64,000 nucleotides of DNA, taken from assembly GCF_049684335.1 (NCBI RefSeq), contig NZ_JBAVFV010000007.1, forward strand, positions 2,968-66,967. The letters are read 5' to 3'. Shown piece after piece: positions 17,122 through 45,316 of this stretch; the stretch's first letter is position 1; each line of letters starts with the position of its first letter. The notes below the pieces were generated by a model. It ran no database searches. It was not told the origin of the DNA and saw only the letters and a program-made list of their open reading frames with translations. Both the position numbers and the translations under genes were made by a program. Source of the stretch: Trichococcus sp. GTDB taxonomy: Bacteria; Bacillota; Bacilli; Lactobacillales; Aerococcaceae.

Positions 17122-17227
17122 AATATGGACCCCCCTCTCAATTTTTATTTTTTTGGTCTAGCGCGCTCCTTCCATCCCTTACTACCTATCTTTCCCTAAT
17201 CACAAAAATAATTTTTGGTAGGGGGGG

Positions 17228-17518
17228 CTATCGCAGCACGCGCTTTACTATCAAATTGTTTTTCGTGAAAATTTTTCCGTATGGCTGTTGTCTGGTATGG
17301 CCTTGCAAGTCAGCAAGTAACTTGTATACCCTGTTCCGATCGAACTCATGATATAGAATGCATTGATAAGGGATAGTCAAGTTTATTTTGCCGTGCCTTT
17401 CATCCTTGAAAAGTGCAGCCATAACATCGTTGTCTTTATACAGCACCGCAACAAAGCGCCCTTGTATCTCTATGAATCTATCTTCTACTTGTTCCATACG
17501 CTCATACCATCCCTTCAA
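17228..17518 (-). CDS. Hypothetical phage protein
   Basis: 96-aa ORF. The start is uncertain (TTG, or an internal ATG). Confidence 0.4.
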   Translation of the reverse strand: MKGWYERMEQVEDRFIEIQGRFVAVLYKDNDVMAALFKDERHGKINLTIPYQCILYHEFDRNRVYKLLADLQGHTRQQPYGKIFTKNNLIVKRVLR

Positions 17519-17542
17519 GTAATTCTTGTAATGTTGTTTTTT

Positions 17543-18016
17543 TCATTGTTTCAACTCCCAAATTTCATTGTCTATATCAGCAGTATCTCGTTTGAGTTTT
17601 TTAATTCGTTTATGGCTTTCTTTTATGAAGGGATGATCTGCGACAATTTCCGCATGCCTACGCCTAATGTAAACAGCGTGATAATCCAATTCTTCAGCTA
17701 TGACTTTCAGCGTCTTGCCTTCAATATACTTCTTTTTAAGCATTTGGTTTTTATACCCTTTGAATGTATCAATTAACAACATAAGAGATTCCTTGATTTC
17801 CTCCCGAAGTTTCAAACCGTTCTCGATTTTTTTAATCGTTTCTTCAATATGTGCATGTGCGCCCTTTGATTCATTTGTTATTCTGACTTTTGCCAGGTCT
17901 CCTTTTTCTAACCTAATCAATTCAAGTCTTGTTTTATTTAGATTCCATTTCATATTTGCTATCTCTTCTTCAAGTTCTTGGTATTCCATAAGCCATTTGT
18001 ATTTGATCAACGGCAT
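17543..18016 (-). CDS. Phage late-gene activator-like protein (ArpU/RinA-like, sigma-70 region-4-type HTH)
   Basis: 157 aa. The segment YIEGKTLKVIAEELDYHAVYIRRRHAEIV resembles a sigma region-4 HTH. Size and coiled N-terminus fit ArpU/RinA-type proteins. Recognised from memory, not searched. Confidence 0.45.
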   Translation of the reverse strand: MPLIKYKWLMEYQELEEEIANMKWNLNKTRLELIRLEKGDLAKVRITNESKGAHAHIEETIKKIENGLKLREEIKESLMLLIDTFKGYKNQMLKKKYIEGKTLKVIAEELDYHAVYIRRRHAEIVADHPFIKESHKRIKKLKRDTADIDNEIWELKQ

Positions 18017-18092
18017 TCACTCCCAACATATCCCAGATAATATAAAAGACTTGCTCACCAGGAAGCACTGGCCACTGATAAACAAGTCCGAT

Positions 18093-18668
18093 TCAATTAT
18101 ATTTTTTCAAAATTCTATCAATCTTTTGTAACATCGCTTTTCTTTGGAGGGCTTCACTCATTTCAAGCATTCTGTTTATGCTTTCCATAATCGGCAACAC
18201 TGTTCTTCTGTCACCATTCATAACACTTGTATCATCATAGGCCGGATTCTTTACCAGGCTTATTTCTAATAACTCAGCTTTAAGGACAGTCCGATAATTC
18301 CTCTTGTCCTTCCAGGTCCAATTAGATTCTGAATATCTAAACCCTATTGAAACCTTGTTCAATTCGCCTTTGTCCATTTCTCGCATGACGGCTTTTCCGG
18401 TCCTGGTGTTAGGAATAATGATCTTGTATTTTAGCCCTATGCTATCTTCTTCCAGAATCAGTGAACCATCATCAACGCATGCAATACGCTTTGTAACATC
18501 ATGAGAATAGAAAGCATACTGATTTTTATTTTTTAGCGAATCGGCAAAGGCCCCTCTCTCAACTTGTTCAAAGAACCTGTTGCCATTTTCATGTATTTCT
18601 TTCGATAAGCTGCGCCATTTCACGGCATAGCCGCTTATAATTCGTTGTGTGTCGTCCGGTTCCGTCAT
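18093..18668 (-). CDS. HK97-family prohead protease (Peptidase S78/U35)
   Basis: ISGYAVKW...VERGAFADSL...YSHD...LEEDSIGLKY...G.LNKVSIGF...ELLEISLVKNPAYDDT matches the prohead protease motif order, including the His and Ser catalytic positions. Confidence 0.75.
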   Translation of the reverse strand: MTEPDDTQRIISGYAVKWRSLSKEIHENGNRFFEQVERGAFADSLKNKNQYAFYSHDVTKRIACVDDGSLILEEDSIGLKYKIIIPNTRTGKAVMREMDKGELNKVSIGFRYSESNWTWKDKRNYRTVLKAELLEISLVKNPAYDDTSVMNGDRRTVLPIMESINRMLEMSEALQRKAMLQKIDRILKKYN

Positions 18669-18680
18669 AGGTTCAACCCT

Positions 18681-19313
18681 TTAACCCATTAATGTGGCGG
18701 TTAGATTTGGCCGTTGACGGTGGTTCTTGATAACCTCCGGAGAAAACACCTCGTAATTCAGCCGATTATCAAAAGACGGCTGTGCACCTGGATAAGTAGG
18801 GATAAAGGTTTCGGCCTTTACAGTTGTATCCAAAGCCTGAATCTTAGTACAAAAATATCTTTGGTTATCCAATTCACTTTGATAATCCCTAATTGCTGCA
18901 TAATAGGCCGCCTGTGCATCTAGCACCTTCTGTTTATGAACTTCAATTATTTGGTTTTGTTCGGCAAGGATGCGTACAGCTTCATTTTTCACGGCTTCCA
19001 GGTTGATGTATTCGGCTGTTTTCGAATTCTTCAGGCCGTCAATTTTGCGCTTTTCTTTTTTGATTTCTGTTTCTAGTTCCGTGATTTTCACGTCAAAGTC
19101 TTCTTCTTTTTTAGCAAAGAACTTCAGCGGATTCAGTTTGTTCATGCTGTCATTTAATGCCGTCTTTACTGCTTTTTCTTCGAGCGCTGCAATCTCTTTT
19201 TCTAAGTTATAGATACGGCTTTCAGATGCCTGGATAAGTTGTGGCTTCTGGTTCAATGCCTTTGTAGCTTCCTGGTACAATTTCGCTTTGTTCATCATGT
19301 CCTGATAATTCAT
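18681..19313 (-). CDS. Hypothetical coiled-coil phage protein
   Basis: 210 aa with a GAAAGGTGAG RBS. No family recognised. Confidence 0.5.
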   Translation of the reverse strand: MNYQDMMNKAKLYQEATKALNQKPQLIQASESRIYNLEKEIAALEEKAVKTALNDSMNKLNPLKFFAKKEEDFDVKITELETEIKKEKRKIDGLKNSKTAEYINLEAVKNEAVRILAEQNQIIEVHKQKVLDAQAAYYAAIRDYQSELDNQRYFCTKIQALDTTVKAETFIPTYPGAQPSFDNRLNYEVFSPEVIKNHRQRPNLTATLMG

Positions 19314-19316
19314 AGG

Positions 19317-19478
19317 TTACTCACCTTTCTTCTTATCGTTTTTCAACACTGTGTTGATTTTCTTGATAGCTTTCGCCCTGGCTTCTGCTTCTTTGGTGTT
19401 TTCTTCTTTACCGTTGTTCATACCACGGTTAGCGGCTCCGATCATACCTGTTGATGTTTCCATGTGTTTCTTCGTCAT
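19317..19478 (-). CDS. Hypothetical small protein (below the ORF-track length cutoff)
   Basis: Reverse translation gives MTKKHMETSTGMIGAANRGMNNGKEENTKEAEARAKAIKKINTVLKNDKKKGE* behind an AAGGGAG RBS. It fills the gap between flanking genes exactly. Confidence 0.45.
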   Translation of the reverse strand: MTKKHMETSTGMIGAANRGMNNGKEENTKEAEARAKAIKKINTVLKNDKKKGE

Positions 19479-19493
19479 AGTTGATACGCTCCC

Positions 19494-19733
19494 TTATTCT
19501 GCTGATTTAAATTGTCTTGATTCAACTTCGTAAACTGCCTGTGCCAGATTCTTGATAGCTTCATTCGTTACCTGAATGCGCTCATGCCGTTCTGCTTCCG
19601 TTCCCATCCTTACATTTTTCTGGCCAAAGGTTTCTGTGTACTGGTCCACAATGTTTTCAAAACGTTTTTTATCTTCCTCGCTTAATCTTTCCCACTCACT
19701 TTTGAAACCTTCTGAATAATTATTTAGATTCAT
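19494..19733 (-). CDS. Hypothetical phage protein
   Basis: 79 aa with a TGGAGGTGAAATA RBS. Confidence 0.5.
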   Translation of the reverse strand: MNLNNYSEGFKSEWERLSEEDKKRFENIVDQYTETFGQKNVRMGTEAERHERIQVTNEAIKNLAQAVYEVESRQFKSAE

Positions 19734-19822
19734 TATTTCACCTCCAATCTATTTGAATTTTTTTGATATTATGCTGCAGCGGATCACCTCCCTTTGCTTT
19801 GATTAATCCAATAGAACACGCA

Positions 19823-19906
19823 TAAACTTTGGCGAGGGCGTGGGTTTTATTATTAATCACCATTAAACTTTGTTAATTGGTAGGGGCAACGGTGTTTTAA
19901 ACTTTG
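19823..19906. repeat. Three copies of TAAACTTTG in the noncoding gap after the replication genes (candidate iterons / element ori)
   Basis: Exact 9-mers at 19823, 19864 and 19898, spaced 41 and 34 bp apart, inside the 300-bp gap 19734-20034. Confidence 0.3.
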
Positions 19907-20034
19907 ATTGTGTGTTTCTGTGTAATTCGTTTCTTGGTTCAATCCGTCAAAGGTTTCTGATTGATTTTCTAAGTTCATGAGTATTTATGTGTCCGATTAA
20001 GAAAATCGCTCCTAGCTACCTTTTTTTGAACATT

Positions 20035-20910
20035 TTAGAAACCGAATCCGGGCCGCTTGTCATTAATCTCTGAAAAATCAAGTATCTTCAGATTCATTGA
20101 AAGTCGGGAAGAAATCCGTGAATCATATGCCGCCTTCAACTGGTCATAGCTTAAATTGGTGCTTATAATCGTGCTTTTCGTGCCTTCCCTGGCGTTTATT
20201 ATTTTGAACAAAGTTTTGTAAGTGTGTTCCGATGCCTGTTTTGTTGTTGATGTCGTGCCAACGTCAGTTCCTAAATCGTCCAACACTAGAACATCAGCAT
20301 TCTTCATCAGGTCTATGTAATAATCAGCCGTTTTCTTGTCCGTTGCCGTGTTACTGTATGATGCAATGATTAATTCCATCACACTGGTAAAGTCTATGAA
20401 TAGGCAAGTAAGCTGCTTTTTGTAGGATGCCGACATTTCATTGATGTTGAATAGCATCGAATGAGCAATATGGCTTTTCCCTGTTCCGGCCGGTCCTGTA
20501 AGAAGCACATTGGCTATTTGTCCGGAAGCAATGTCTATGGAAATGGCCTTTGCTTTGTCGCACGCTTCCAGTTCTTGCTTTGAATTAGCGCCAAACCCTT
20601 TGAAACCTTTATCCAGGAAGGACCGGCCGCCATAAATGGAATATTTTTTAAGATACTTCTTTTTCTCTTTGTCTTTCCATTGGTCACTGGCTTTTGTTTC
20701 ATCAATGGAAACTTTGGTATTCCTGGTTTCTAGCCTACATTTCGGGCAATAGACTTCATTTGTTTTTAGGTCCATCATCTTTTGAAAGGTGTTCTCATGG
20801 ATACCAGGGTTATCTTTAGCGGTGCAATATTCATCAACGAATAACTTCAGATGCTCAAGCATCACCTTTTCGCTTTCCTTTTTGTTCCCCATAATTTTAT
20901 GTGCATTCAT
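20035..20910 (-). CDS. DnaC/IstB-like AAA+ ATPase (helicase loader)
   Basis: Walker A LLTGPAGTGKSH and Walker B VLVLDDLGTD. The gene follows the DnaD-like gene. Confidence 0.8.
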   Translation of the reverse strand: MNAHKIMGNKKESEKVMLEHLKLFVDEYCTAKDNPGIHENTFQKMMDLKTNEVYCPKCRLETRNTKVSIDETKASDQWKDKEKKKYLKKYSIYGGRSFLDKGFKGFGANSKQELEACDKAKAISIDIASGQIANVLLTGPAGTGKSHIAHSMLFNINEMSASYKKQLTCLFIDFTSVMELIIASYSNTATDKKTADYYIDLMKNADVLVLDDLGTDVGTTSTTKQASEHTYKTLFKIINAREGTKSTIISTNLSYDQLKAAYDSRISSRLSMNLKILDFSEINDKRPGFGF

Positions 20911-20924
20911 TTTTCAATCCTCCT

Positions 20925-21713
20925 TTAGAAAAACATATCGCTATTTTCGATTGGCGTTTCAAGATATTTATCTGCGCTTGCCTTGGCATGTTCTACAATG
21001 CGTTGCGACTGCGTATCAACTGGCCTTTGGTATTTTGGCTTTTGGTTTATATAGCTTTCAAATTTTGTACCAAATAACGTATTGGGCCTTAAATACTGTT
21101 CCATCTTCGGGTTACCTTTCCATTCTGCAACCTTGTTATCAATGACCTGTTTAAAATCTGCTTCTGTGAATTTCTCTTTGATCCTGGAATCAATCAGCCT
21201 TTGAGTGGCCCTGCTAGATTCCTTGAAACTAGTTCCGGCTGCAGCGTTCAGGTGTGCAACGACTGAACTATATATATCTTTATTCTTTTCATTCTTAACA
21301 TTCTTAGCATTATTAACATTCTTGTCTGTGTCCATTTGCTGTCCATCCGCTGTCCGTTTACCGTCCATTTGTTGTTCACTTTCGGTATCTCCACCTTGAT
21401 ATTTTCCCCAATTATCAACGGTTACAACGGTCCATTTGTTGTTCGATTCTAAACTTAAAACGTTCATTTTTTCTAGCAATTTCATGTGTCGCCATACTGT
21501 GCTTTCTGGTATGTTCAGTTCTGCAGCTGCCTTTTTCCTACCAAAGACAAATTGCCCTTTTTTCAATTCAATAGTTTGCAATCCGATAACCGCATTTCTA
21601 TCCTGGTGACTGGATTTAAGCAAACAATATACAAAGACTTTTAGAAGCCTTTCATTTTCAAATATTGGGCTGTCCATCAGTTTTCTATAAAGCTTTATCC
21701 AGCCTTCAGCCAT
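20925..21713 (-). CDS. Phage replisome organiser (N-terminal winged helix plus DnaD-like C-terminal domain)
   Basis: MAEGWIKLYRKLMDSPIFENE N-terminus. The C-terminus ...LNAAAGTSFKESSRATQRLIDSRI...WKGNPKMEQYLRPNTLFGTKFESYINQ is typical of the DnaD / phage conserved C-terminal domain. Confidence 0.8.
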   Translation of the reverse strand: MAEGWIKLYRKLMDSPIFENERLLKVFVYCLLKSSHQDRNAVIGLQTIELKKGQFVFGRKKAAAELNIPESTVWRHMKLLEKMNVLSLESNNKWTVVTVDNWGKYQGGDTESEQQMDGKRTADGQQMDTDKNVNNAKNVKNEKNKDIYSSVVAHLNAAAGTSFKESSRATQRLIDSRIKEKFTEADFKQVIDNKVAEWKGNPKMEQYLRPNTLFGTKFESYINQKPKYQRPVDTQSQRIVEHAKASADKYLETPIENSDMFF

Positions 21714-21747
21714 TTTTCCACCCACTCACATTTATTTATTTAGTCCT

Positions 21748-22083
21748 TCAGATTCCTAATTCTTTTAACAATTCCATTCCGTGAATCAAATCTGCATCCA
21801 ATTCATCAATTAACTTGGTAATAAGATCCAGAAGAATTTCCTGACCTTTCATCACGCGTTGCACTTCGAATTTCAAACCGCACGGTAATTCTTCCTGTGC
21901 TGCTTCAGAAACATCAGAATTGCCATAATGAAGCTGATTTAAAAGTTCTTTTATATAAATCAAGTTTGGCGTTTCAAAGATATCTTGTAGCTTGTCCATT
22001 TTTTCATTCATAAATTTGCTCCTATCCATTTCAATTTTTTTATTGTAGAATGAAACATAAATAGGCTTCCTAAAGCCTTTCAT
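21748..22083 (-). CDS. Hypothetical phage protein
   Basis: 111-aa ORF. The start is uncertain. Confidence 0.4.
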   Translation of the reverse strand: MKGFRKPIYVSFYNKKIEMDRSKFMNEKMDKLQDIFETPNLIYIKELLNQLHYGNSDVSEAAQEELPCGLKFEVQRVMKGQEILLDLITKLIDELDADLIHGMELLKELGI

Positions 22084-22119
22084 ATCCGATTGCCCTCTCT
22101 TGCTTGCCGGCCTGGAGGG

Positions 22120-22314
22120 CTATTTTTTTGCATATTTTTCTTTTCTAATTCCTAGCTGAACTTCATCAATGACTAGCAAAACGCATTTGATTTTTTTATT
22201 CCAATCCATCCCCTTGATTTCATAGCCGTTAACTTGAAGAAAGTTGTCTATTGCCGATCTGTTGAAATTATGCAAAACAATCTCACACCTGGTTAGTTCG
22301 TTTTCGCTTTCCAT
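22120..22314 (-). CDS. Hypothetical phage protein
   Basis: 64-aa ORF in the early-gene string. Confidence 0.4.
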   Translation of the reverse strand: MESENELTRCEIVLHNFNRSAIDNFLQVNGYEIKGMDWNKKIKCVLLVIDEVQLGIRKEKYAKK

Positions 22315-22328
22315 CGTTTCGCCCCCTT

Positions 22329-22427
22329 TTATTCTTCAGTGAAGCATTTCCATACCGTTCGCAGCGTTACATAGGTTAGGAACCCAACGAGTAACCCGGC
22401 CATATATGATTGTGTGATAGCATCCAT
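22329..22427 (-). CDS. Hypothetical 32-aa hydrophobic peptide (below the ORF-track cutoff)
   Basis: MDAITQSYMAGLLVGFLTYVTLRTVWKCFTEE* behind a strong AAGGGAGGTG RBS. Confidence 0.4.
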   Translation of the reverse strand: MDAITQSYMAGLLVGFLTYVTLRTVWKCFTEE

Positions 22428-22506
22428 TTTTTACACCTCCCTTCATTGATAAGATTTCAATTCTCTCAATCCGCCCCCGGATTTCTCTATTTTTATTTTT
22501 TACCGC

Positions 22507-22788
22507 TCATCGTTCTAAAGTTTTCATGAAGTCATCAATTGATTTTCTTGATATAAGTGTTCTGCCCTGCACCTGGATAAGCGGTAACCCGGTATGTATC
22601 AAGCGTTCTAATATCGCTCTTGATACTCCTAGATATTGGGCCGCTTCACCTTTTGAATAGTATGCCTTACGTTCTAGCGGATCATTGAAAGCCGATTGTA
22701 TTGCAGCCCTTACCGATTCTTTTACATGCTGCTCTATAGTTTCGTTTAGGCCTTCCAGTTCAATAGAAAATGTTGGCTTAGTATTCAT
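22507..22788 (-). CDS. Excisionase/MerR-type HTH DNA-binding protein
   Basis: YYSKGEAAQYLGVSRAILERLIHTGLPLIQVQGRTLISRKSIDDFM is an Xis-type HTH_17-like segment. ATG start behind AGGGAAGGTG. Confidence 0.6.
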   Translation of the reverse strand: MNTKPTFSIELEGLNETIEQHVKESVRAAIQSAFNDPLERKAYYSKGEAAQYLGVSRAILERLIHTGLPLIQVQGRTLISRKSIDDFMKTLER

Positions 22789-23047
22789 GAATTTCACCTT
22801 CCCTATTTTTATAAGCCGTGCCGATCATCATGCCTTTGTTGTCGAACAAATCCACTTCTGTTTCTCTGCTGTGATAGCCTGTTTTTGAAATATATACGAC
22901 ACCTTTTCTTCTTGCTTTGGTGTAATACTCAACTGTCAAAGGGCTGATATGATAGCCTAGTTCTTTAAGGTGATCGAGTGACTTCACTTTGTATCCAACG
23001 AAAACCCGTTTTCCGGATTCAGTTATCAAAAAATATTTTTTCAGCAT
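22778..23047 (-). CDS. Hypothetical phage early protein
   Basis: 89 aa from the ATG behind GAGGTGG. Confidence 0.45.
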   Translation of the reverse strand: MLKKYFLITESGKRVFVGYKVKSLDHLKELGYHISPLTVEYYTKARRKGVVYISKTGYHSRETEVDLFDNKGMMIGTAYKNREGEIHEY

Positions 23048-23072
23048 GTTTTCCACCTCAAATCTTGAATTA

Positions 23073-23306
23073 TTATTTACATTCCTTTACTTTTTGTTCA
23101 AAAAAAATTTCATCAATCGTAATGTCTGGAAAATATGGTAACAATACATCTTTCATAGCTTGTTTTTCCCGATCATTAAAGGGTAATTTCCCACGCTCTT
23201 TCGGGCTATATTGCTGCTTGCTGATACCTAACTTCGCTCCCATTTGTTCTTGTGTTAACCCTAGCATTGCACGATAGCCGGCAATTTTATTTATTTTAAC
23301 GTCCAT
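23073..23306 (-). CDS. Cro-like XRE-family HTH regulator
   Basis: IAGYRAMLGLTQEQMGAKLGISKQQYSPKERGK HTH_3 motif. Divergent from the repressor gene. AAGGAGG RBS. Confidence 0.8.
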   Translation of the reverse strand: MDVKINKIAGYRAMLGLTQEQMGAKLGISKQQYSPKERGKLPFNDREKQAMKDVLLPYFPDITIDEIFFEQKVKECK

Positions 23307-23426
23307 CCCTCTCAACCTCCTTTACCTTTCTTTACTCTATAATAACCTGAACATCTTACCATGTCAACAAATACATTTACTTTTATTTACTTTTTAACTA
23401 TAATGGAGTGGTAGGGAGGCAAACAA

Positions 23427-24344
23427 ATGAATATTGATAAAATAAATGTAGGTCTTAGAATTAAATCTATTAGACAAGCCAAAGGGTTCAACATGGAGGA
23501 ATTCGGTAAACTAGTAAACAATACCAGTAAAGGTGCTGTAAATAATTGGGAAAAAGGTGTTAATTTACCTAATACTGAAAGACTATCAATTATTGCTAGA
23601 TTAGGTGAAATATCCGTCAATGAATTGTTGTATGGTTCATTAAATGATTTTGCGTATAGAACTTTAGAATTATTAAAAACAAAACACTCATATAGTGATT
23701 CATTAATTCTAACTATAATGGATCGAATTGATGAATTGATTTTAAAAAGTTTGGGTTTTTCTAAGCCTTATACTAAAGAAATGTTTTATAGTTTTTTCAT
23801 TGATTATTATTCAAAGCTTTTACACAAAACAATGGATCAATTAACGCATGATGATATTAGAAAACCTGATTTTGAAGATAGTCTTGTATCTTTTGTTAAC
23901 AATTACGGTATATCCTTCATGGATATAAAAGAAAAAATTTCTAAAGCAATAGACGGTATACAAGCCGTTGAAATAAATCAATTTAAAAATGACAATTATA
24001 AGCTGCTGTATAATCCATCTTTTAAAAATGAATTATTGGAATATCTTATAAGTGAATATTCATTTGATAACCTATCTGAAGCCGGATTTACTCCATACAT
24101 AAAAGAAATATTAGATGAATATCTGAATAAGCAAGTATTCAATAACAAATATTTACCTTATTCAGTAACAAATGCATCAAATCTATCTGCTGATCTTCTT
24201 AGTGATTTTGTAGTTCCTAAAATAAATGAATATTTCAAAGATTCTAATTTAGATAAGAATTTCCATTCAGATATTTTAGAAACAATATCTGAAGCAAAGA
24301 AAAAAATATATGCAATAAACGCAACCTATTTAGAAAAAGAATAA
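23427..24344 (+). CDS. XRE-family repressor with a long uncharacterised C-terminal domain and no S24 peptidase domain
   Basis: The N-terminal HTH is LRIKSIRQAKGFNMEEFGKLVNNTSKGAVNNWEKGVNLPNTERLSIIARL. About 230 further residues show no Ser/Lys LexA-type autocleavage motif. The gene sits between int and cro. Confidence 0.75.
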   Translation: MNIDKINVGLRIKSIRQAKGFNMEEFGKLVNNTSKGAVNNWEKGVNLPNTERLSIIARLGEISVNELLYGSLNDFAYRTLELLKTKHSYSDSLILTIMDRIDELILKSLGFSKPYTKEMFYSFFIDYYSKLLHKTMDQLTHDDIRKPDFEDSLVSFVNNYGISFMDIKEKISKAIDGIQAVEINQFKNDNYKLLYNPSFKNELLEYLISEYSFDNLSEAGFTPYIKEILDEYLNKQVFNNKYLPYSVTNASNLSADLLSDFVVPKINEYFKDSNLDKNFHSDILETISEAKKKIYAINATYLEKE

Positions 24345-24404
24345 TATTATGCCGGATTCCCGGCACCTCTCGAACCAATGCCCCCGGTGAAAGAGGGAAA
24401 AATC

Positions 24405-25556
24405 ATGGCACAAATAAAAAAATATACAAAAAAAGACGGTTCAACCGCCTATAAGTTTCAAACATACTTAGGAACTGATCCGGAAACCGGAAAACAAAAA
24501 TTCACCACCCGGAGAGGGTTCGCAACTTTAAAAGATGCCAAGTTAGCAGCTTCACGCTTGAAAGTAGAAATAGAAGAAAATGGCTTCCAGGATAACAAGC
24601 GCCATACCTTCAATGAATTATATGAATTGTGGTTCGATTCTGCGTATAAGGCCACGGTAAAAGAAAGCACCTATGCCAGGACAAAAGAACTATTCACGAA
24701 TCACATTCTGCCAAAGTTCGGTAAAAGGGATATTGAAAAAATCAGCGTTACTTATTGCCAGACTACCGTTAACGACTGGTGTAAAACGATGGCAAAATAT
24801 CGCATATTGAAGAACTATACAACCCGGGTCCTGGATTATGCAAGTTCACTCGGACTATTGAAAGATAACCCAATGAAAAAAATCTCAATGCCAAAGCGCA
24901 AAGAGAAAGTTGACCAGGAAGAAGCCGAAAATTTTTATAGTAAAGAAGAATTGCAGCATTTCCTTGCATGCGTAAAGGCTGACGGTTTCCCTCGTTGGTA
25001 TGCCCTGTTTCGGCTCCTGGCTTTTACCGGATTCCGCAAAGGTGAAGCCCTGGCGCTGCAGTGGAAGGATATAGATTTCACCAATGGGAAAATAACTGTT
25101 AATAAAACTTTAGCCAGGGGTGAAAATAACCGCCTGATTATTCAATCACCGAAAACAAAATCCAGTTTGCGGACTATTTCTGTTGATGCCCTTACTATGC
25201 AAGTTCTGAAAGAATGGAAAACGCAGCAAGCGAAAGACTATTTGAAATTAGGCTTCAACACTATGAGCGCTGCACAACCATTATTCACCACTATCAATAA
25301 TGAATATATGCAGCATGCAACGGTAACGAATCGGATAAATAAAATCATTAAGAAGCATGATCTAAAGGTTATCACCGTCCACGGCTTGCGGCACACTCAT
25401 TGTAGTTTGCTATTTGAAGCCGGGGCACCGATCCAGGAAGTGAAAGAACGGCTCGGACATTCTGACATTCAAACAACGATGAATATTTATACCCACGTCA
25501 CCGAAAAAGTGAGAGAACAAACGGCCGAAAGGTTTGCTAAATTTGTGAATTTTTAG
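24405..25556 (+). CDS. int: Tyrosine site-specific integrase
   Basis: MAQIKKYTKKDGSTAYKF N-terminus (SAM-like domain). C-terminal catalytic motifs are ...RKGEALAL..., HGLRHTHCSLL and LGHSDIQTTMNIYTHV. ATG behind AGAGGGAAAAA. Confidence 0.92.
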   Translation: MAQIKKYTKKDGSTAYKFQTYLGTDPETGKQKFTTRRGFATLKDAKLAASRLKVEIEENGFQDNKRHTFNELYELWFDSAYKATVKESTYARTKELFTNHILPKFGKRDIEKISVTYCQTTVNDWCKTMAKYRILKNYTTRVLDYASSLGLLKDNPMKKISMPKRKEKVDQEEAENFYSKEELQHFLACVKADGFPRWYALFRLLAFTGFRKGEALALQWKDIDFTNGKITVNKTLARGENNRLIIQSPKTKSSLRTISVDALTMQVLKEWKTQQAKDYLKLGFNTMSAAQPLFTTINNEYMQHATVTNRINKIIKKHDLKVITVHGLRHTHCSLLFEAGAPIQEVKERLGHSDIQTTMNIYTHVTEKVREQTAERFAKFVNF

Positions 25557-25585
25557 AATTACATATTCAATTACATATTCAGTGC

Positions 25586-25620
25586 AAAAAAAATAAGCCT
25601 TGAAACATTGCAGAAAAGGC
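25586..25620 (-). terminator. Candidate terminator supplied by the element for the interrupted tRNA-Lys transcript
   Basis: The minus strand reads GCCTT-N14-AAGGC followed by TTATTTTTTTT, about 40 nt past the tRNA 3' end. Confidence 0.4.
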
Positions 25621-25661
25621 GCTCTACCAACGTTTCTAAGACTTATTAAAATGATAATGTA

Positions 25662-25734
<73 letters not shown>

Positions 25735-25868
25735 CTATCACGTGCTAATCACGTAACAAATGTTATTTTACTCTTCTTTTCAATAAAATGCAATAACTTC
25801 ACGAAAAAAAGAGTCCACTTCCGGATAGTATCTCCGGATGCGGACTCTTTTTTGTATTCATTAAGGTC

Positions 25869-29385: not shown

Positions 29386-31404
29386 TTATTCCCCTTCCTT
29401 GATTTTTTCTGGATTTATAACTGCCTTCAGTTTCTCAACGACTTCATGGACTGTCGTATTCTCAATCTGAGTAGCTGCATTGGATAAATGTCCGCCGCCG
29501 CCTAATTTTTCCATGACTGTCTGCACATTGTATTGACCCAGACTTCTGGCGCTGATGCCCACTCTACCGTCCTGGCGTTTTGTGACGACAAATGAAGCAT
29601 CTACCGCTTCCATCGACAACATCGTGTCGGCTGTTTGAGCAGCGACGACCGTGTCGTATATTTTTTCATCTTCTCCATGAACAATCGCCAGGTTACCATC
29701 CACAAATTCCATAGTCTGCAATAAATGACTACGCAACAGATAAGTATCCAAGTCCTCTTTCAGTGATTTCTGGATAAGTACGGTGTCCGCTCCATTGGAC
29801 TGCAGATAACTGGCAGCATCAAACGTCCTTGATCCGGTTCTCAAACTGAAGTTTCGGGTATCGACGATAATCCCCGCCAACATAGCCGTTGCTTCTATTT
29901 TATTGATGGCATCCATCTCATTGGATTGATATTCGAACAATTCAGCAATCAATTCTGACGTGGAGGATGCATAAGGTTCCATATAGACCAAAACAGAATC
30001 TTTCGGAAACTCTTGTCCGCGTCTATGATGATCCAAGACGACTATTTTTTTAGACAGATTCAACAGCCCAGGTGCTGGCGTCATGGATGGGCGATGGACA
30101 TCGACCATCACGATGAGCGTCTGTGACGTCACCAATGCCATTGCTTGCTCAGGCGAAATAATCCGCTTCGCAATCAAAGGATCTTTGTCTATCTCTTGCA
30201 TAATACGATTCACATCATTGGAAAATTGTTGTGGATCCAATACTATCCAGGCTTCCCGATTGTTCATCTGAGAAATACGGCGGATTCCTAAGCAGGAACC
30301 GATGACGTCCATATCCGGATAACTATGCCCCATGATGATCACCTTATCGGCATGGACAATAAGCTCTTCCAAAGCCTGGCTGATCATTCTCGCACGGATA
30401 CGGGTCCGTTTTTCCATTGGGTTAGTTTTGCCGCCATAGAAACGGGCATCTTCATTTTCGGCTCTCACAACAACCTGATCGCCACCTCTTGCCAAGGCTA
30501 AATCAATATTCGACTGCGCCATTTTGGCGACTTCTTTAAAATTAGTTTGCTCAAAAGTTTTTTCATATGAGAAGCCCATGCTCAATGTCAACGGAAAATT
30601 TTGCTTGTAGGTTCTTTCTCTTATTTGATTTATAATATCAAAATTATTTTCTTCGATTTTCTTTAAAGCTCGCATATTGGTCAATGCTATAAAGCGGTCA
30701 TCATCCACTCGTTTCAAAAAGACATTATTCATGTTTGCCCAATTTGTGAGTTGATTCGTCAGATAGTTGTTTACATTCGATCGCTTACGATCGTTCATGG
30801 ATTGAACAGCCTCATCATAATTGTCGACAATGATATTCCCAAAAACAAATTTTTCGTCTTTGTACTTTTCTTCAATTTTGGCATATTCTGTTATATCCAT
30901 CAAATAAATGACGCCAATATCCTCTTGAATGATCATATCAAAATAATGATCTCCCCATTTCACACGGCGTATCACATAGTCCTGCGATTCTTTAAAAAGC
31001 TGATATAATTCTTCATCAACCACATTCAGCTTTCTTCCAAGTATATCTTTCTTGCCAAAATACTTTATTAAATATGGGTTCATCCATTGGATTTCTTCTT
31101 GCTTATTATATAGAAGTATCCCAATAGGCATTTTAATCAAAGCCTCTTGTTCACCTTTTTTGATTCGATAAGATAAGTCAGATATGTATTGATTTGTCTC
31201 ATCAATCAAATACTCCGAAGAATAACTGATGAATCCAACAATCCCAACGCATAAGAGCATAATTCCAATTCCGATTTTCCAATCTGCAATGAAAGTCAAC
31301 ACAACGATCACCAGCAATAAGAATACGATAATCAGGAAAGGAACCTTAATCTTGTCAGCCTTTATGAAGTGAGGAAGATTCTTTAACTTTTCCTTTATTT
31401 TCAT
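29386..31404 (-). CDS. gdpP: Cyclic-di-AMP phosphodiesterase GdpP (two TM helices, PAS-like, degenerate GGDEF, DHH/DHHA1)
   Basis: DHH motif (IMGHSYPDMDVIGS, DHHRR) and DHHA1 (GGGGH). Start was moved to the ATG at 31404 (MKIKEKLKNL) behind AAAGGAG. Confidence 0.9.
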   Translation of the reverse strand: MKIKEKLKNLPHFIKADKIKVPFLIIVFLLLVIVVLTFIADWKIGIGIMLLCVGIVGFISYSSEYLIDETNQYISDLSYRIKKGEQEALIKMPIGILLYNKQEEIQWMNPYLIKYFGKKDILGRKLNVVDEELYQLFKESQDYVIRRVKWGDHYFDMIIQEDIGVIYLMDITEYAKIEEKYKDEKFVFGNIIVDNYDEAVQSMNDRKRSNVNNYLTNQLTNWANMNNVFLKRVDDDRFIALTNMRALKKIEENNFDIINQIRERTYKQNFPLTLSMGFSYEKTFEQTNFKEVAKMAQSNIDLALARGGDQVVVRAENEDARFYGGKTNPMEKRTRIRARMISQALEELIVHADKVIIMGHSYPDMDVIGSCLGIRRISQMNNREAWIVLDPQQFSNDVNRIMQEIDKDPLIAKRIISPEQAMALVTSQTLIVMVDVHRPSMTPAPGLLNLSKKIVVLDHHRRGQEFPKDSVLVYMEPYASSTSELIAELFEYQSNEMDAINKIEATAMLAGIIVDTRNFSLRTGSRTFDAASYLQSNGADTVLIQKSLKEDLDTYLLRSHLLQTMEFVDGNLAIVHGEDEKIYDTVVAAQTADTMLSMEAVDASFVVTKRQDGRVGISARSLGQYNVQTVMEKLGGGGHLSNAATQIENTTVHEVVEKLKAVINPEKIKEGE

Positions 31405-31519
31405 GATAGCTCCTTTACTGAACCTACATTTTGCACTTGTACATTTTAACATATCCAGATAATAATAGCTATAATGCCCTTTCTGACGGGATTAGTTGAC
31501 ATCTCAACGAAAAATTTAA

Positions 31520-31535
31520 TGTTTCACGTGAAACA
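31520..31535. promoter_or_regulatory. parS site 1 (ParB/Spo0J binding site)
   Basis: TGTTTCACGTGAAACA matches the Firmicute parS consensus TGTTNCACGTGAAACA at 16 of 16 positions. It sits inside an 18-bp perfect palindrome. Confidence 0.8.
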
Positions 31536-31889
31536 TTTTTCTGGATAATGTTCGTATTCCAGACAGCAGATTTTCTGAGTGCAACCAGTCAACTTTATGT
31601 TTTCGACGTTTAAAGTATAATTTCCTCAATTACAGTATGCGCTCTGGGACAGATAGACTAATTCCAAACTATCCAGTCTTCATTACGCCCATCAACCAGA
31701 TTGGATTATAGTGCTGCATTTTTTCTGGATATTTTTCAAAGCATAACTCTATTTTTGGTGAGTAATTATCCGCAATCGGATTTGGACGCCTTGAAAATAT
31801 ATCTCTCAAAATAGTAACCACTGCCAATCAAAATGTAATTATTATTATAGTTCTCACTTAATTGCAATTCCCTCTACACTATTTTCAAA

Positions 31890-31905
31890 AGTTCCACGTG
31901 GAACT
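31890..31905. promoter_or_regulatory. parS site 2
   Basis: AGTTCCACGTGGAACT, inside the 22-bp perfect palindrome 31887-31908. Confidence 0.65.
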
Positions 31906-31964
31906 TTTTTAATTACCCCCATAAATTTATCCTCAAATCCTGTGTAAGTATATTTCTTTAACGA

Positions 31965-31980
31965 TGTTCCACGTGGAACT
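31965..31980. promoter_or_regulatory. parS site 3
   Basis: TGTTCCACGTGGAACT. Confidence 0.7.
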
Positions 31981-32265
31981 TTTATGTTCGCTCATGTTGT
32001 CTCTTCGATTTGATCCCTTCAGCTGCTATTTTTTTTCAGCATAAACTCGCTTTCTTTCACCACCGATTACTCTAACAACCATTTTTACGGAAAACGATTT
32101 TCATGATTCCTTCCCTTACTATTTCACTAATAATTTGAATAATCTAGTTATACGATGTTCTCCTATTTTTCATGCAATTTACAGAATTTATTTTATTGTT
32201 TGAAAATGAATTTTCATCCTGTCTATCTTTTCTAAGTTTCCTGTTCCTGTAGCAACTCCTGTTCT

Positions 32266-32772
32266 TGTGGATAACTCAAACCATTGTCAACCTTTTTAGT
32301 TATCCACATTATCCGTCGTTCGCCTGTGCACAACTAAATTAAATAGTACGATCTATCCTTGATAGAACAGGATTTTCGCCATAAAATAATTTTGTTGATA
32401 ACTTATTACCCTGATATTATTTATGATCCCTTTGGTGCTGCCGAACACCTGTGGACATCCTGTGTATAAGTCGGAATTAACAAGCGAATCCCTCTATATA
32501 CAACTGAACATTTGTTTGATTAGTGTGTTTATGAAATAATGCCCTTTATTTTGGATGAATTTACTATCATTTTAATGAAAATTGTTGAATCTTGAAATAG
32601 TCACCCTTATATCCAGCTTTTAGTCATTACTGCTCGCTTGCAACTGCATAACAGAAGTCAGTTGATTTTAGCGAGATCTTTCTGTGGATAAAGTTAAAGA
32701 AATAGTTTTCCACATCCTATATTTGAATGTACACTAAGTCTTGGAATCATCGCCATATCCTTTTATGGATAA
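32266..32772. promoter_or_regulatory. DnaA-box cluster outside oriC
   Basis: Perfect TTATCCACA/TGTGGATAA boxes lie at 32266, 32300 and 32683. One-mismatch boxes lie at 32461 (TGTGTATAA), 32706 (TTTTCCACA) and 32764 (TATGGATAA). Two-mismatch boxes lie at 32309 and 32450. Confidence 0.7.
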
Positions 32773-33824
32773 CTAAAAACAAAAATACAATCAGCCTGTC
32801 TGTATACAACCTGCGGATCATTATTTCCAGTGACATTAAATGTTACGATGAAATCATCTCATTAATATAGTATGCAAAAGATAGTCTTTTGCTCTTCCAG
32901 CACCTGACTTAATTTTAATGCATCTCAATTCGTAGAAAAACTATCCCTTGATTCGAATAGGTTCGATTATTCTGAGTGAATCATTCCTTTCATATTTCAC
33001 GAATAACTTTAATTAATCCATCATTTTAATTCAGCACACATATTAGGAATACACAGCCTGAACGGAAGCCTTCAACTGTGAAGCTGATATATTTCGAATA
33101 GTAGCAATCTATTTTTAGATTTAGTCATTATATCTGCGATTACTATAGATTTGCATGTGTATTTTTTGTCAGTCCTAGACCTGATTATTTGAATCTACTA
33201 ATAAGTTCTATGGCTATGAATGCAGAACCGGAACCTTTTTGCGCACTGCTGTTTGATACCTCTGATGCGAATCCTCAGATTCTCTGTAATTTATCATTGA
33301 AATAATCTACATTTTGTAGTGTATCCCTATCTTTTATATGGCCTTAAGATAAAAGGGGGGCTTTCGCTGCTTTATGCTGCCTGATCTCGGATATCTGATT
33401 TTAGATTTGTGTCAAACGAGCTAATTTATTCTTGCTACTTTTTTCAACCACCAAGTCCTCCAGTCATCGTAATTTTTTTGCATGCATCAATCAGAACTAC
33501 TCTAAGTGGAATCTGCTGCTGTCGGTAATATAAAACTGTACTGGAAGAGTATGTATTTGTTTGCCCTGCGGGATATCTGCAGGATGGGGAGATAGGAAAG
33601 ATCTTACTTCTTCTAGATTGTACGCTGTGGACATTCCCCAACAACTCCGTTCTTCCTCCTTTCAGAAATGTTTTACTATCGCCGAAGTATACGCTTTAGC
33701 CAATGGCATTGATCAGCAGATGATGTTTTTTGACATCCAGCATTCCATTGTTAAGAACACTACTCCCAAGGTTGATCCAACAGGAGCGATCTAAATATTT
33801 TTTGCATCAAAAACAGTGCTAAAA

Positions 33825-33840
33825 TGTTCCACGTGGAACA
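33825..33840. promoter_or_regulatory. parS site 4
   Basis: TGTTCCACGTGGAACA at the centre of the 40-bp perfect palindrome 33813-33852. Confidence 0.75.
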
Positions 33841-34081
33841 TTTTAGCACTGTCGATTTTCCTTTGTTCAAATCGCCAAAATTTAAGCTTCTGACAGCATC
33901 TGCATTCTTGCTTGAAGATTTACCCACGACTAAGTTTAATTCGTTCTCCCAGGGGTAAAATAACCCGATCAGAGCATCATAGTACCTAGCCTTATACCAC
34001 AATGAAGAATATCCAGTCGGTGCGCCAGCGCTTATGGAAAGAAAAATTTCCGAATTCCTCTGCTAGCGTGACGAGTAGGGG

Positions 34082-34245
34082 AGGGCATTTAGATAAGGCA
34101 GAATCCTTGGTGTTGAGCTTTCAAATAGGCTGTTCAGTGTACCCGAGACGAGCAATAAATTGGCGGAGATCTTAAGGGGAATGATCCGCTAAGGCTGATG
34201 CATAAAAACAGCCTAGCCTTCTTAGTTTGCCTATTTAGTAATGCC
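34082..34245. ncRNA. Candidate structured RNA (strand and identity unknown)
   Basis: Nested complementary segments are 34082-34088/34239-34245 (7 bp), 34095-34099/34227-34231 (5 bp) and 34125-34133/34206-34214 (9 bp, perfect). An alternative 9-bp hairpin (34187-34196/34208-34216) competes for the same 3' strand. The region is GC-richer than the neighbouring ORF-free DNA. Confidence 0.25.
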
Positions 34246-34433
34246 CGAAGGAGACATGGGAGGAGCCGCTCAGAAAAATACAGCAATAAGTTTGCTTCAC
34301 CTAACCATATGATCGTTCAACAGAAACGGATAAAGCGCATCGAAAAAATTTGTATCCGGAAGAGGTGAAAGGGGCGCGATATCGGGTGCAGTGCGGTGTG
34401 TCTGTTGTCCAGCAGCTCTTTTTGGGTACAAAA

Positions 34434-34459
34434 AAAGGAGCGCTCCTAGAAGCGACTCC
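34434..34459 (-). terminator. rpsR terminator
   Basis: The minus strand reads GGAGTCGC ttctagga GCGCTCC followed by TTTTTTT. Confidence 0.7.
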
Positions 34460-34466
34460 CTTAATA

Positions 34467-34709
34467 TTATTCTGCTAATGTAAATGGCATAAGAGCCATG
34501 ATACGAGAACGTTTGATAGATACAGTCAAAGTTCTTTGATGTTTAGCGCATGTACCTGTTACACGACGAGGTAAAATTTTACCTTTTTCAGATATATAAC
34601 GTTTCAATAAATCAGTCTCTTTGTAATCTACATGATCAATGTGGTTAGCACAGAAATAACAAACTTTCTTACGTTTGCGTCCGCCTCTGCTGTTACGTTG
34701 AAATGCCAT
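34467..34709 (-). CDS. rpsR: 30S ribosomal protein S18
   Basis: [20 protein letters not shown]... from the ATG at 34709 behind GGAAAAGGAGGAA. Confidence 0.95.
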
Positions 34710-34752
34710 GTCAATTCCTCCTTTTCCTAAACTAACCATTCTGTCCTAAAGA

Positions 34753-35324: not shown

Positions 35325-35340
35325 TGTTTCACGTGGAACA
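35325..35340. promoter_or_regulatory. parS site 5, in the rpsF-ssb intergenic spacer
   Basis: TGTTTCACGTGGAACA. Confidence 0.7.
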
Positions 35341-43364: not shown

Positions 43365-43514
43365 ATAAATTAAATAATATTAGTAATAGTAGTAGGGCCT
43401 GTTTATACTGTGGATAAGTGAAAGAAGCTGACAATACAAGTAGTTTTCCACTTGTGGATAACGTGTTCGTAAATGCAGTCTTACTTATTGGCTTATCCAC
43501 AATGCGCGAGAGCA
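43365..43514. promoter_or_regulatory. oriC, dnaA-dnaN half: AT-rich tract, TAG/TAA trinucleotide repeats, DnaA boxes
   Basis: Perfect DnaA boxes lie at 43409, 43453 and 43493. TAGTAATAGTAGTAG (43381-43395) and a GGGCC spacer sit next to them. An AT-rich stretch (43365-43380) lies next to dnaN. Confidence 0.8.
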
Positions 43515-44855
43515 TCATTTTTTCAGACTGTTTTTGATCGTCTCGATTTCGCGTTGCAGAACAGGGTCTTTTTTTACGGAAAGGGCAATCTTGTCATGTG
43601 CGTGAATGACAGTCGTGTGATCCTTGCCGCCGAATTCGGAACCGATTTTCGGTAAGGAATTATCCGTCATCACTCGGGAAAGGTACATAGCGATTTGTCT
43701 TGGCACAACGATACCCTTGGTGCGCTTCTTGCCTTTCAATTCCTCGACGGTCACATGGTAATATTTCCCGACCGCTTGCTGGATGGCATAGATGGATAAA
43801 GCTTTTGGTTTTTCGGAAGGCATGATGCTCTTCAGAGCGTCAGCTGCCAGACTGGTGGTGATGTCGGTCCCTTGTATCGCTGAATAGGCTTGAACCCGGA
43901 CGAGGGCGCCTTCCAGTTCCCTGATGTTGGAATCTATCTGCCCAGCGATATAGCTGAGGGTGTCATCAGGGATTTCCAGGCGCTCGCTGTTGGCTTTTTT
44001 GCGCAGAATGGCGATGCGTGTCTCCAGGTCGGGCGGTGTGATATCAACCGATAAGCCCCAAGCAAAACGCGAGACGAGCCGTTCCTGTAGCTTAGGGATC
44101 TCGTTCGGCAAGCGATCGCTCGTCAGCACAATCTGCTTGCGTTCATCGTAAAGCGCATTGAAAGTATGGAAGAACTCTTCTTGTGTTCCTTCTTTGTCGG
44201 CAAAAAATTGAATATCATCGACCATCAATAAGTCGACGCTGCGGTATTCATTGCGGAATTGTTCCTGCGTCCGATTCTGGATGGAATTGATGAAATCATT
44301 GGCGAATGTTTCGCTGCTGACATATTTTACTCTGGCGGTTGGCCGTAGTTGCAACATTTGATGGCCGATGGCGTGCATCAAATGGGTCTTGCCTAAGCCT
44401 ACTCCCCCATAGAAGAAGAGCGGGTTGTAGATTGTGCCGGGTTCCTCCGCCACGACGAGGGCAGCAGCATGAGCCATCTGGTTTCCTTTTCCTATAACAA
44501 AGGTGTCAAAGGTATACTTGCTGTTCAGTTGGGCATCCTTGAAGAGACGATTGTTGTTGGTGCGTTTGATGGTCGGTTTTGCAATATCAGGCATTTCCTC
44601 ATTCTTGATCATAAAAATGGGAGTCAGTTCTTTGCCGCTGAATTCGTAGATACCTTCGACAATTCTGCTCATCAAATTATTTTGCCAATAATCTTTATGT
44701 AAAGAAGAGGGAACTTCGATGATGATATTCGTATCAGTCAGTCGGACCGGGACTGCGCTGTCTATCCAAGTATCGTAGCTGACTTTGGACAGTGATTCTT
44801 GAAATTTTTCTTGCAGATAACGCCATAATGAATAGATGTCATCCAAATGGGACAC
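43515..44855 (-). CDS. dnaA: Chromosomal replication initiator DnaA
   Basis: 446 aa with Walker [11 protein letters not shown] and the C-terminal DNA-binding domain ([11 protein letters not shown]). Confidence 0.97.
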
Positions 44856-45316
44856 CTCCTTTTAGTGAGTCCTTTTTATTTTAGCATTATATCAAAAAGT
44901 TTTCCACAACTCTTTTCATCTGTGAATAAAACAATTAACCGGTGCATAAATAGTTTTCCACAGGCTTGAGGAAGGTGTGGAAAAGGTTTGTGTGCGAAGT
45001 TGTTATCCACGGTCGGTTGTGGAATTCCACGTTTTCAAAACGTTGATTGTTACGGCGTTTGATACACTTTTCCACAGGTTTTGGAGGTGAGGTTTAGGTA
45101 GAAATACACACGCTGTAGGGATGTGGATAAATCGGATCGAAGGTGTGAGCAATCAAGAAGGCTGCAGGAGTTATCCCGTGCCATTGTGTATTAAAAAAAA
45201 GGTTGTGGATAATTTTATTTTGATGAGAATCAAATTTTTTTCAAGAAAGGTGTTTTATCTTTCAATTTTTTGTGCTATTATATCTCAGTGAGTTCAATAA
45301 AATGAACCAATTTTAC
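44856..45316. promoter_or_regulatory. oriC, upstream-of-dnaA half: DnaA-box array and the dnaA promoter region
   Basis: Perfect boxes lie at 45122 and 45204. One-mismatch boxes lie at 44900, 44921, 44954, 45003 and 45068, and a two-mismatch box at 44976. An AT-rich tract follows the boxes. Confidence 0.8.

Follow-up and report, generated by a model that had tools for sequence, protein, structure and literature searches.

Between gdpP and rpsR, chromosomes of Trichococcus (Carnobacteriaceae) carry about 3 kb of DNA that, judging by its sequence, is likely to be an origin-proximal ParB-loading site that has expanded within this genus and is fused to a cluster of DnaA boxes, with neutral spacer between. 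We analysed this interval, here called the island, in a 64,000-nucleotide stretch from Trichococcus sp. (the window; assembly GCF_049684335.1, contig NZ_JBAVFV010000007.1), where it occupies positions 31405-34466 (3062 bp). The parS and DnaA-box motifs of the island are under purifying selection; the remaining island sequence is not. We infer from the motifs that ParB and DnaA would bind there, and that the cluster would damp initiation and organise the region around the replication origin, oriC. The borders of the island and its setting are defined by the following features:

29386-31404, minus strand: gdpP, with the Met at codon 17 of the listed open reading frame (ORF) taken as start
34467-34739, minus strand: rpsR
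43515-44855: dnaA, with the usual bipartite oriC around the gene
43409-43501: oriC DnaA boxes on the dnaA-dnaN side, three, all perfect
44900-45212: oriC DnaA boxes upstream of dnaA, eight, two of them perfect

The gene order first read from the sequence alone, purA-dnaB-rplI-gdpP on one side of the island and rpsR-ssb-rpsF-gyrA-gyrB-recF-yaaA-dnaN-dnaA on the other, matches the Pfam-annotated neighbourhoods of relatives, and the gap of about 3 kb is real: a recheck of the ORF list gives no ORF of at least 60 aa within 31453-33443. Across all frames, stop-free stretches reach at most 100 codons (Markov-1 simulations of the same sequence: 97 +/- 19), so the ORF content of the interval equals that of random noncoding DNA. 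Five short ORFs at 33444-34368 are each interrupted by stops or frameshifts in nearly all of nine congeners. The interval is AT-rich, as had been claimed, with a GC content of 0.37 against 0.43-0.49 for the flanking genes. The window encodes a GdpP with 100% identity to the T. collinsii DSM 14526 protein, and the same interval is present on metagenome contigs with 99.3% identity to the window; it is therefore no assembly artefact. The island lies on the leftward replichore, 9-14 kb from the oriC boxes flanking dnaA and from the cumulative GC-skew minimum, which falls at 40-44 kb of the window.

The evidence for selection on the motifs comes from comparison within the genus. A protein-guided scan recovered 13 Trichococcus loci, from species and metagenome-assembled genomes (MAGs), of which nine span the interval and four are partial. 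In the nine spanning loci rpsR and gdpP are 2714-4347 bp apart without a convincing ORF, and each locus has four parS sites, one by rpsR and three by gdpP, with two to four perfect DnaA boxes between. The nine complete and four partial loci have a common order: rpsR, parS-a, DnaA boxes, parS-b, parS-c, parS-d, gdpP. The flanking genes are 88-97% identical in DNA across Trichococcus, whereas the island is far more diverged. With 1200-1430 fourfold-degenerate sites from seven flanking genes as a neutral yardstick, the window compares with its congeners as follows:

Five closest species: fourfold-site identity 0.84-0.89, island identity 0.80-0.81
T. pasteurii: fourfold-site identity 0.78, island identity 0.70
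MAG L005: fourfold-site identity 0.72, island identity 0.61
T. ilyis: fourfold-site identity 0.62, island identity 0.55
T. palustris: fourfold-site identity 0.53, island identity 0.46

As island identity is slightly under that of fourfold sites, the bulk of the island is unconstrained in sequence; the aligned island also carries many indels. Certain segments depart from this pattern in two ways. First, the gdpP promoter and 5' untranslated region (UTR), the four parS sites, a 58-bp element, the rpsR terminator and the DnaA boxes at 32266, 32393, 32450-32469, 32683 and 32706 are invariant or nearly so in ten sequences. In T. palustris, where blastn aligns only the 74 bp adjoining gdpP, the island has four perfect parS sites and three perfect DnaA boxes, including an inverted pair 34 bp apart. 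Second, conspecific contigs differ at 11-19 positions per kb in the island versus 2-5 per kb in its flanks, and these polymorphisms all lie outside the 58-bp element, the perfect DnaA boxes, the parS cores and the parS-a hairpin. Alignment across relatives, which the sequence-only reading had proposed as a check, shows the island, its parS sites and its DnaA boxes to be kept throughout the genus. Among the three explanations put forward, unranked, in that reading, a chromosome-organisation locus combining a ParB platform with a DnaA-box cluster is favoured, in that the motifs, alone in the island apart from the promoter and terminator signals and the 58-bp element, resist an otherwise neutral divergence across the genus.

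Could the island instead consist only of decayed genes or mobile DNA, its parS sites and DnaA boxes being chance or relict sequences without function? Dead DNA would be expected to look like the filler, neutral and AT-rich; one segment retains a coding-like GC content, and one species' copy carries an insertion sequence (IS). However, every lineage keeps the four parS sites and the DnaA boxes in the same order, and at the fourfold identity of T. palustris (0.53) the chance of keeping a single 16-mer is about 0.53^16, or about 4e-5. The proximal parS is, moreover, older than the expansion. Searched in six frames against Pfam at E<=10, the island yielded only a 23-residue DUF454 fragment (E 0.11), ancient remnants being undetectable at such divergence. 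Blastn in 'distant' mode against PLSDB plasmids and INPHARED phages matched nothing but 29 bp around a parS in a Clostridium phage. The island showed no tandem repeats, and its only direct repeats are parS sites with their A/T flanks, so there has been no recent duplication. We regard decay alone as extremely improbable. Decayed coding or mobile DNA may still be the source of the filler, given the IS in T. flocculiformis; no remnant was detected in the island itself by the Pfam and blastn searches, and decay leaves the conserved motifs unexplained. In that species (locus L006, 409-1803) a DDE transposase gene (464 aa; Pfam DDE_5 and DDE_Tnp_1) lies inside the unconstrained spacer, and the contig begins just upstream of the IS.

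We scanned the whole window for the 16-bp parS palindrome TGTTNCACGTGNAACA, allowing up to two mismatches, and obtained seven matches versus 0.21 expected, four of them within the island. These are the four sites (at 31520, 31890, 31965 and 33825) recognised by the sequence-only reading, each with 0-2 mismatches to TGTTNCACGTGNAACA; a fifth lies nearby:

31520-31535: parS-d, TGTTTCACGTGAAACA, perfect, 131 bp from parS start to the gdpP ATG
31890-31905: parS-c, AGTTCCACGTGGAACT, two mismatches, both at the outermost positions
31965-31980: parS-b, TGTTCCACGTGGAACT, one mismatch, 75 bp from parS-c
33825-33840: parS-a, TGTTCCACGTGGAACA, perfect, the centre of a 40-bp palindrome
35325-35340: fifth parS, perfect, in the rpsF-ssb gap, outside the island

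The four island sites match the motif, lie in the origin domain and are conserved over a neutral background. The distance from parS-d to the gdpP ATG is 127-132 bp across all Trichococcus, and in the outgroup gaps one parS lies 82-208 bp upstream of gdpP in all but Bavariicoccus (nearest 1070 bp); since a gdpP-proximal parS is found across the outgroups, parS-d is the ancestral site of the locus. The core of parS-c, GTTCCACGTG, is unchanged in ten species. The spacings between sites vary: a-b is 2589 bp in T. palustris and 1708-1917 bp in other Trichococcus, b-c is 313 bp against 65-77 bp in nine species, and c-d is 162 bp against 321-373 bp. Every Trichococcus has a parS in the rpsF-ssb gap, as do six or seven of nine outgroups; the L019 site is mismatched, and the same gap of Granulicatella and Bavariicoccus has no parS. 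Further parS-like sequences in the window, at 52912-52927 and 55960-55975 (one and two mismatches), fall in hemerythrin/PAS and GntR/UTRA regulator genes respectively.

The second component is the DnaA-box cluster. At up to one mismatch to TTATCCACA, a threshold at which 15 boxes are expected by chance in the whole window, the island has ten, three of them perfect, where chance would give about 0.7 per 3 kb. The clustering that had been noted from sequence alone is borne out: seven boxes, three perfect, fall in 32266-32772 (507 bp), where about 0.12 are expected. The cluster totals about eight boxes over about 510 bp, 860-1370 bp from the gdpP start:

32266-32274, minus strand: DnaA box, perfect TTATCCACA, unchanged in all ten species
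32300-32308, plus strand: DnaA box, perfect here, in T. collinsii and in T. palustris; TTATGCACA in others
32326-32334, minus strand: degenerate DnaA box, TGTGCACAA here; elsewhere TGTGTATAA, TGTGGATAA or TGTTGATAA
32393-32401, minus strand: DnaA box, TTATCAACA, one mismatch, unchanged in all ten species
32450-32469, minus strand: tandem DnaA-like boxes 11 bp apart, TGTGGACAT-CC-TGTGTATAA
32683, minus strand: DnaA box, perfect, conserved in nine species
32706, plus strand: DnaA box, TTTTCCACA, conserved in nine species
32764, minus strand: DnaA box, TTATCCATA

The boxes at 32266 and 32300 form an inverted pair, 34 bp start to start, and it is this pair that T. palustris also has. In other species the tandem boxes read TGTGGATAA or TGTGGATAT, then TGTGGATAA or TGTGCATAA, and two conspecific polymorphisms hit the degenerate box at 32326-32334. 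Clustered between genes, apart from oriC, and conserved between species, the boxes have the sequence properties of a DnaA-box cluster (DBC).

An inverted pair of perfect boxes within a cluster in AT-rich DNA might suggest that the island is a second or displaced replication origin. This we consider very improbable, and we rejected oriC as an identity for the island. The canonical bipartite oriC flanks dnaA, with its three perfect boxes on one side and eight boxes on the other; the cumulative GC skew falls straight through the island to its minimum beyond, and gene orientation flips at dnaA/rpmH (skew minimum and strand switch both lie at 40-45 kb) rather than at the island. By inspection, no array resembling DnaA-trios lies beside a box of the island.

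Another feature of the box cluster, a candidate promoter, bears on a different proposal:

32359-32387, plus strand (towards rpsR): candidate sigma-A promoter, TTGATA-17-TAAAAT, matching 10/12 consensus positions, with DnaA boxes either side

The island might be a noncoding transcription unit, in which a transcript of about 1.45 kb, antisense to the neighbouring genes, starts at this promoter and ends at the parS-a hairpin, the functional product being the RNA itself or the act of transcription. TTG and a TAAAAT/TAAATT/TAATAT hexamer are retained in nine of ten species, the expected start is covered by DnaA boxes and immediately preceded by others, and a strong hairpin with a T-run is kept on the plus strand in nearly all species. 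However, promoter-like matches are no commoner in the island than in shuffled sequence (13 versus 12.8), the body of the transcript diverges no more slowly than neutral sequence and cannot be aligned in T. palustris, and parS palindromes also occur without a T-run, as in the outgroup locus L015. Rfam yields nothing for the island at the gathering threshold, and at E<=1 only a plant microRNA match (E 0.2) on the parS hairpin. We therefore judge such a unit distinctly unlikely, though a plus-strand transcript from the candidate promoter, controlled by DnaA and ending at the parS-a hairpin, could exist. The broader option of a large noncoding RNA, raised by the sequence-only reading, finds no Rfam match, no excess folding and no conservation outside the motifs; membership of a structured RNA class was likewise rejected on Rfam, folding z-scores and neutral divergence.

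How did the locus come to be? We fetched rpsR-gdpP gaps of outgroups via GdpP homologues, counting DnaA-like boxes at up to one mismatch:

Carnobacterium divergens: gap 165 bp, one parS, no boxes
Desemzia: gap 270 bp, one parS, no boxes
Granulicatella: gap 310 bp, two parS, one box
L015: gap 376 bp, one parS, three boxes
L018: gap 443 bp, one parS, four boxes
Jeotgalibaca sp. A122: gap 605 bp, three parS, seven boxes
L017: gap 1099 bp, three parS, five boxes
J. ciconiae: gap 1312 bp, two parS, three boxes
Bavariicoccus seileri (Enterococcaceae; L030, 1507-4000): gap 2494 bp, gene-free, four parS (three perfect), five boxes

In most sampled relatives rpsR is followed directly by gdpP, 165-443 bp away, and against such gaps the 3-kb interval is as unexpected as had been thought. 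The small membrane-protein gene that the sequence-only reading places between rpsR and gdpP in related Lactobacillales such as enterococci is in none of the sampled relatives, among which Bavariicoccus is the sole member of the Enterococcaceae and Enterococcus genomes are not included; no gene is called in any sampled outgroup gap. DnaA boxes also occupy the gaps of L015, L018, L017 and Jeotgalibaca. On these sequences, the DnaA-box cluster would have joined the ancestral parS in the Jeotgalibaca/Trichococcus lineage, and the gap was then probably enlarged independently in Trichococcus and Bavariicoccus; in the latter, a member of another family, this locus looks to have expanded in parallel. 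The IS insertion in the T. flocculiformis copy is one visible route of gap growth. In L015 (10480-16319), four extra genes - a 136-aa ORF, a peptidase S41, an ATP-binding cassette (ABC) transporter and an Rgg-like regulator - lie between rplI and dnaB; outside L015 the gdpP-rplI-dnaB block is contiguous.

The parS site nearest rpsR differs from the others in its surroundings:

33813-33852: parS-a palindrome, 40 bp, perfect, with a T-run next on the plus strand; terminator-like hairpin or cruciform

All 20 positions of each arm pair in 12/12 Trichococcus sequences, with two single G-T wobbles, and positions 11-20 show two to five Watson-Crick pair types among the 12, so that the arms covary. 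In ten of the 12, pairing ends at position 20 and the plus-strand T-run follows. Folded as RNA, the hairpin reaches -28 to -30 kcal/mol whichever strand is taken (z about -8 to -9), and a run of T4-T7 begins 0-3 nt after the stem on the plus strand in 11/12 sequences and on the minus strand in most, the T. ilyis hairpin being poor in its T-run; the stem is AT-rich and atypically long. Long perfect palindromes also surround intergenic parS sites in L018, L019, L015 (there without a T-run after the extended palindrome), at three more T. palustris sites and in Bavariicoccus, where a perfect 40-bp palindrome (20-nt arms) contains one parS and has a T-run after it. Palindromes of this sort are found at L009 9399, 9712 and 9874, L018 6814, L019 6810 and L015 7884; the family's many intergenic parS palindromes reach 10-22 bp past the 16-bp core, with arm sequences that vary by taxon. 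The parS-a palindrome could be a bidirectional terminator, a cruciform or a product of quasi-palindrome correction, a mutational process (templated mutagenesis) able to keep arms perfect. It resembles intrinsic (bidirectional) terminators in its very stable hairpin with a 3' T-run on the plus strand and, mostly, a 5' A-run. It differs from them in its 18-20 bp AT-rich stem, its parS apex and the three unpaired bases before the T-run.

These palindromes enter into a further proposal, which we hold only tentatively and think improbable, that the gene-free, multi-kb state is itself selected, as a dedicated and transcriptionally insulated regional centromere. ParB clamps bound to cytidine triphosphate (ParB-CTP) would enter from parS sites at both ends and fill a zone free of roadblocks, while terminator-like parS hairpins and the rpsR terminator would exclude RNA polymerase. 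Consistent with this, the interval is multi-kb in every Trichococcus lineage, even those with neutral sites near saturation; parS sites stand at both ends (one on the rpsR side, three on the gdpP side); the parS-a hairpin is kept by compensatory changes and comes with T-runs; and Bavariicoccus has 2.5 kb of gene-free DNA with four parS sites at the same locus. On the other hand, parS spacings vary between T. palustris and the rest, T. flocculiformis tolerates an IS with a 464-aa transposase gene inside the island, and 165-450 bp suffice in relatives. The filler also lacks A-tract phasing or any other structural signal - AA/TT periodicity at 10-11.5 bp, a sign of intrinsic bending, gave |z| < 1.4 in ten species - and persistence of length could reflect chance together with a slow rate of deletion. 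The fullest version, in which the spacer of Trichococcus and, independently, of Bavariicoccus is a selected regional centromere, hairpin-forming parS sites double as terminators or cruciforms, and ParB loading is physically coupled to DnaA titration, we likewise think improbable.

A ParB-loading site joined to a DnaA-box cluster does not account for everything conserved in the island, whose other features are these:

31405-31493, minus strand: gdpP 5' UTR and promoter, with an extended -10 TGTTAAAAT at 31443-31451 and a conserved upstream block at 31461-31475
32116-32173: 58-bp conserved element, TTACTATTTCACTAATAATTTGAATAATCTAG...TTTCAT, mean identity 0.90 across nine species
32203-32218: small conserved inverted repeat, TGAAAATGAATTTTCA
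32543-32567: small conserved block, CCTTTATTTTGGATGAATTTACTAT
32773-33812: unconstrained AT-rich spacer, identity at or below the neutral level, with the highest polymorphism density
33853-34440: GC-richer segment, GC 0.44-0.46, purine-rich on the plus strand, with reversed skews
34441-34454, minus strand: rpsR intrinsic terminator, hairpin plus T7

The gdpP promoter and 5' UTR have a mean identity of 0.94 over nine other species, with long invariant runs, and TGnTAAAAT upstream of gdpP recurs in Carnobacterium, Jeotgalibaca and L015. The block around the rpsR terminator (34419-34462) has a conservation of 0.90. Within the spacer, the lineage of the window has a private insertion at about 33445-33565. 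A 59-aa ORF was called automatically here in four loci (L021 2283-2462, L022 2287-2466, L023 755-934 and L027 784-963, corresponding to about 33457-33636 of the window, minus strand); its position within a lineage-specific insertion, and the stops that interrupt it in all other species, make it almost certainly a miscall. The GC-richer segment described by the sequence-only reading exists, but the nested helices assigned to it do not stand and were rejected, folding being that of shuffled sequence on both strands (z -0.08 on plus, +0.76 on minus). The stretch from rpsR to parS-a, 0.45-1.1 kb long, has a GC content of 0.40-0.50 and reversed skews in nine of ten species although its sequence has diverged; in T. 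ilyis the skew of the rpsR-proximal segment is reversed in A/T only.

Several of these observations weigh against our preferred explanation. The 58-bp element is not accounted for by a ParB/DnaA platform: it is still recognisable in T. palustris, was not found in outgroup gaps, and by inspection matches no promoter, CodY box or DnaA-trios. Nor does such a platform explain the GC content and reversed skew kept in the rpsR-proximal segment, or the covarying 40-bp palindrome around parS-a. The relatives L015 and L018 need at most about 450 bp for the same function, and the survival of about 2 kb of neutral DNA since the genus diverged, despite the usual deletion bias, is unexplained. Finally, no parB, parA or noc is encoded within the 64-kb window; the ORFs at 20035-21725, considered as a parAB pair, were rejected as phage replication proteins in a prophage-like element.

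Both components of the island have counterparts elsewhere. Several parS sites close to oriC are the norm, and ParB, once loaded at parS, spreads and brings in SMC for organisation and segregation of the origin (PMC7022226). Like parS1-4 of Pseudomonas aeruginosa, the four parS of Streptococcus pneumoniae and the eight of Bacillus subtilis (PMC7022226), those of the island are multiple canonical 16-bp sites in the ori domain. The island differs from these sets in three respects: it packs four sites into one 3-kb gene-free interval instead of spreading them over tens of kb across genes, a covarying 40-bp palindrome has one of the sites at its apex, and the array grew from one to four sites at a single locus along a traceable phylogenetic series. 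Intergenic parS upstream of genes are known, and in P. aeruginosa can repress them (PMC7022226).

DnaA-box clusters near oriC are common in Firmicutes and Actinobacteria (PMC3245932). In B. subtilis, DBCs outside oriC restrain initiation, are most effective near oriC, show synergy with Spo0J/Soj and have a synthetic interaction with spo0J (PMC3245932). The cluster of the island is like DBC[yydA-yycS] and DBC[ywcI-vpr] (Okumura et al. 2012, PMC3245932) in being an intergenic group of consensus or near-consensus boxes by oriC, and would be functionally akin to datA of Escherichia coli. In contrast to the B. subtilis DBCs, it shares a gene-free interval with four parS sites and, at 860-1370 bp from the gdpP start, is not beside a gene open to regulation; it is orthologous in position to none of the six. 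We found no specific description in the searchable literature of an island combining parS and DnaA boxes, of parS in cruciforms or terminators, or of Trichococcus origin biology.

Taken together, our preferred explanation would work as follows. The four parS sites would act through ParB as a centromere and SMC-loading site, and the cluster of about eight boxes would bind and titrate the initiator DnaA, making the island the main ParB-loading site of its chromosome arm, fused to a DnaA sink. Presumably replicated within seconds of initiation, site and sink would be duplicated early in the cell cycle. The remaining 2 kb or so would be neutrally drifting filler, encoding neither protein nor conserved RNA, that was probably gathered by insertions such as IS elements and then decayed.

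Elsewhere in the window, a prophage-like element (12400-25750) has a GC content of 0.34-0.43 versus about 0.45-0.5 around it and adjoins a tRNA gene (25662-25734). It includes a minor tail protein (13693-16473), a prohead protease (18093-18668), helix-turn-helix (HTH) regulators, the IstB-like and Phg_2220_C replication proteins at 20035-21725, and a tyrosine integrase (24378-25556). Rfam also identifies a flavin mononucleotide (FMN) riboswitch (3739-3854, plus strand, 112 bits) and a T-box leader (2216-2442, minus strand, 95.8 bits).

What can be said of the wider meaning of this locus? Its components are textbook; what is unusual is their joint gene-free packaging across a genus, the traceable stepwise expansion and the placing of a parS in a covarying hairpin. 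For annotation, calling hypothetical small ORFs in the interval should be avoided, and this relevance would remain even if the filler were simply junk and the island an ordinary origin-proximal control region. Since parS sites and clusters of DnaA boxes generally lie dispersed between genes, their roles in cis are hard to separate from effects on neighbouring genes. In Trichococcus the two share one gene-free interval, in which the bases under selection stand out from a neutral background, and living relatives show stepwise how a 165-bp gap holding a single parS became about 3 kb holding four. As a clean natural system, the locus can be used to ask what number and spacing of parS sites, and what content of DnaA boxes, an origin region requires, whether ParB loading and DnaA titration are mechanistically coupled, and why bacteria retain kilobases of apparently neutral DNA.

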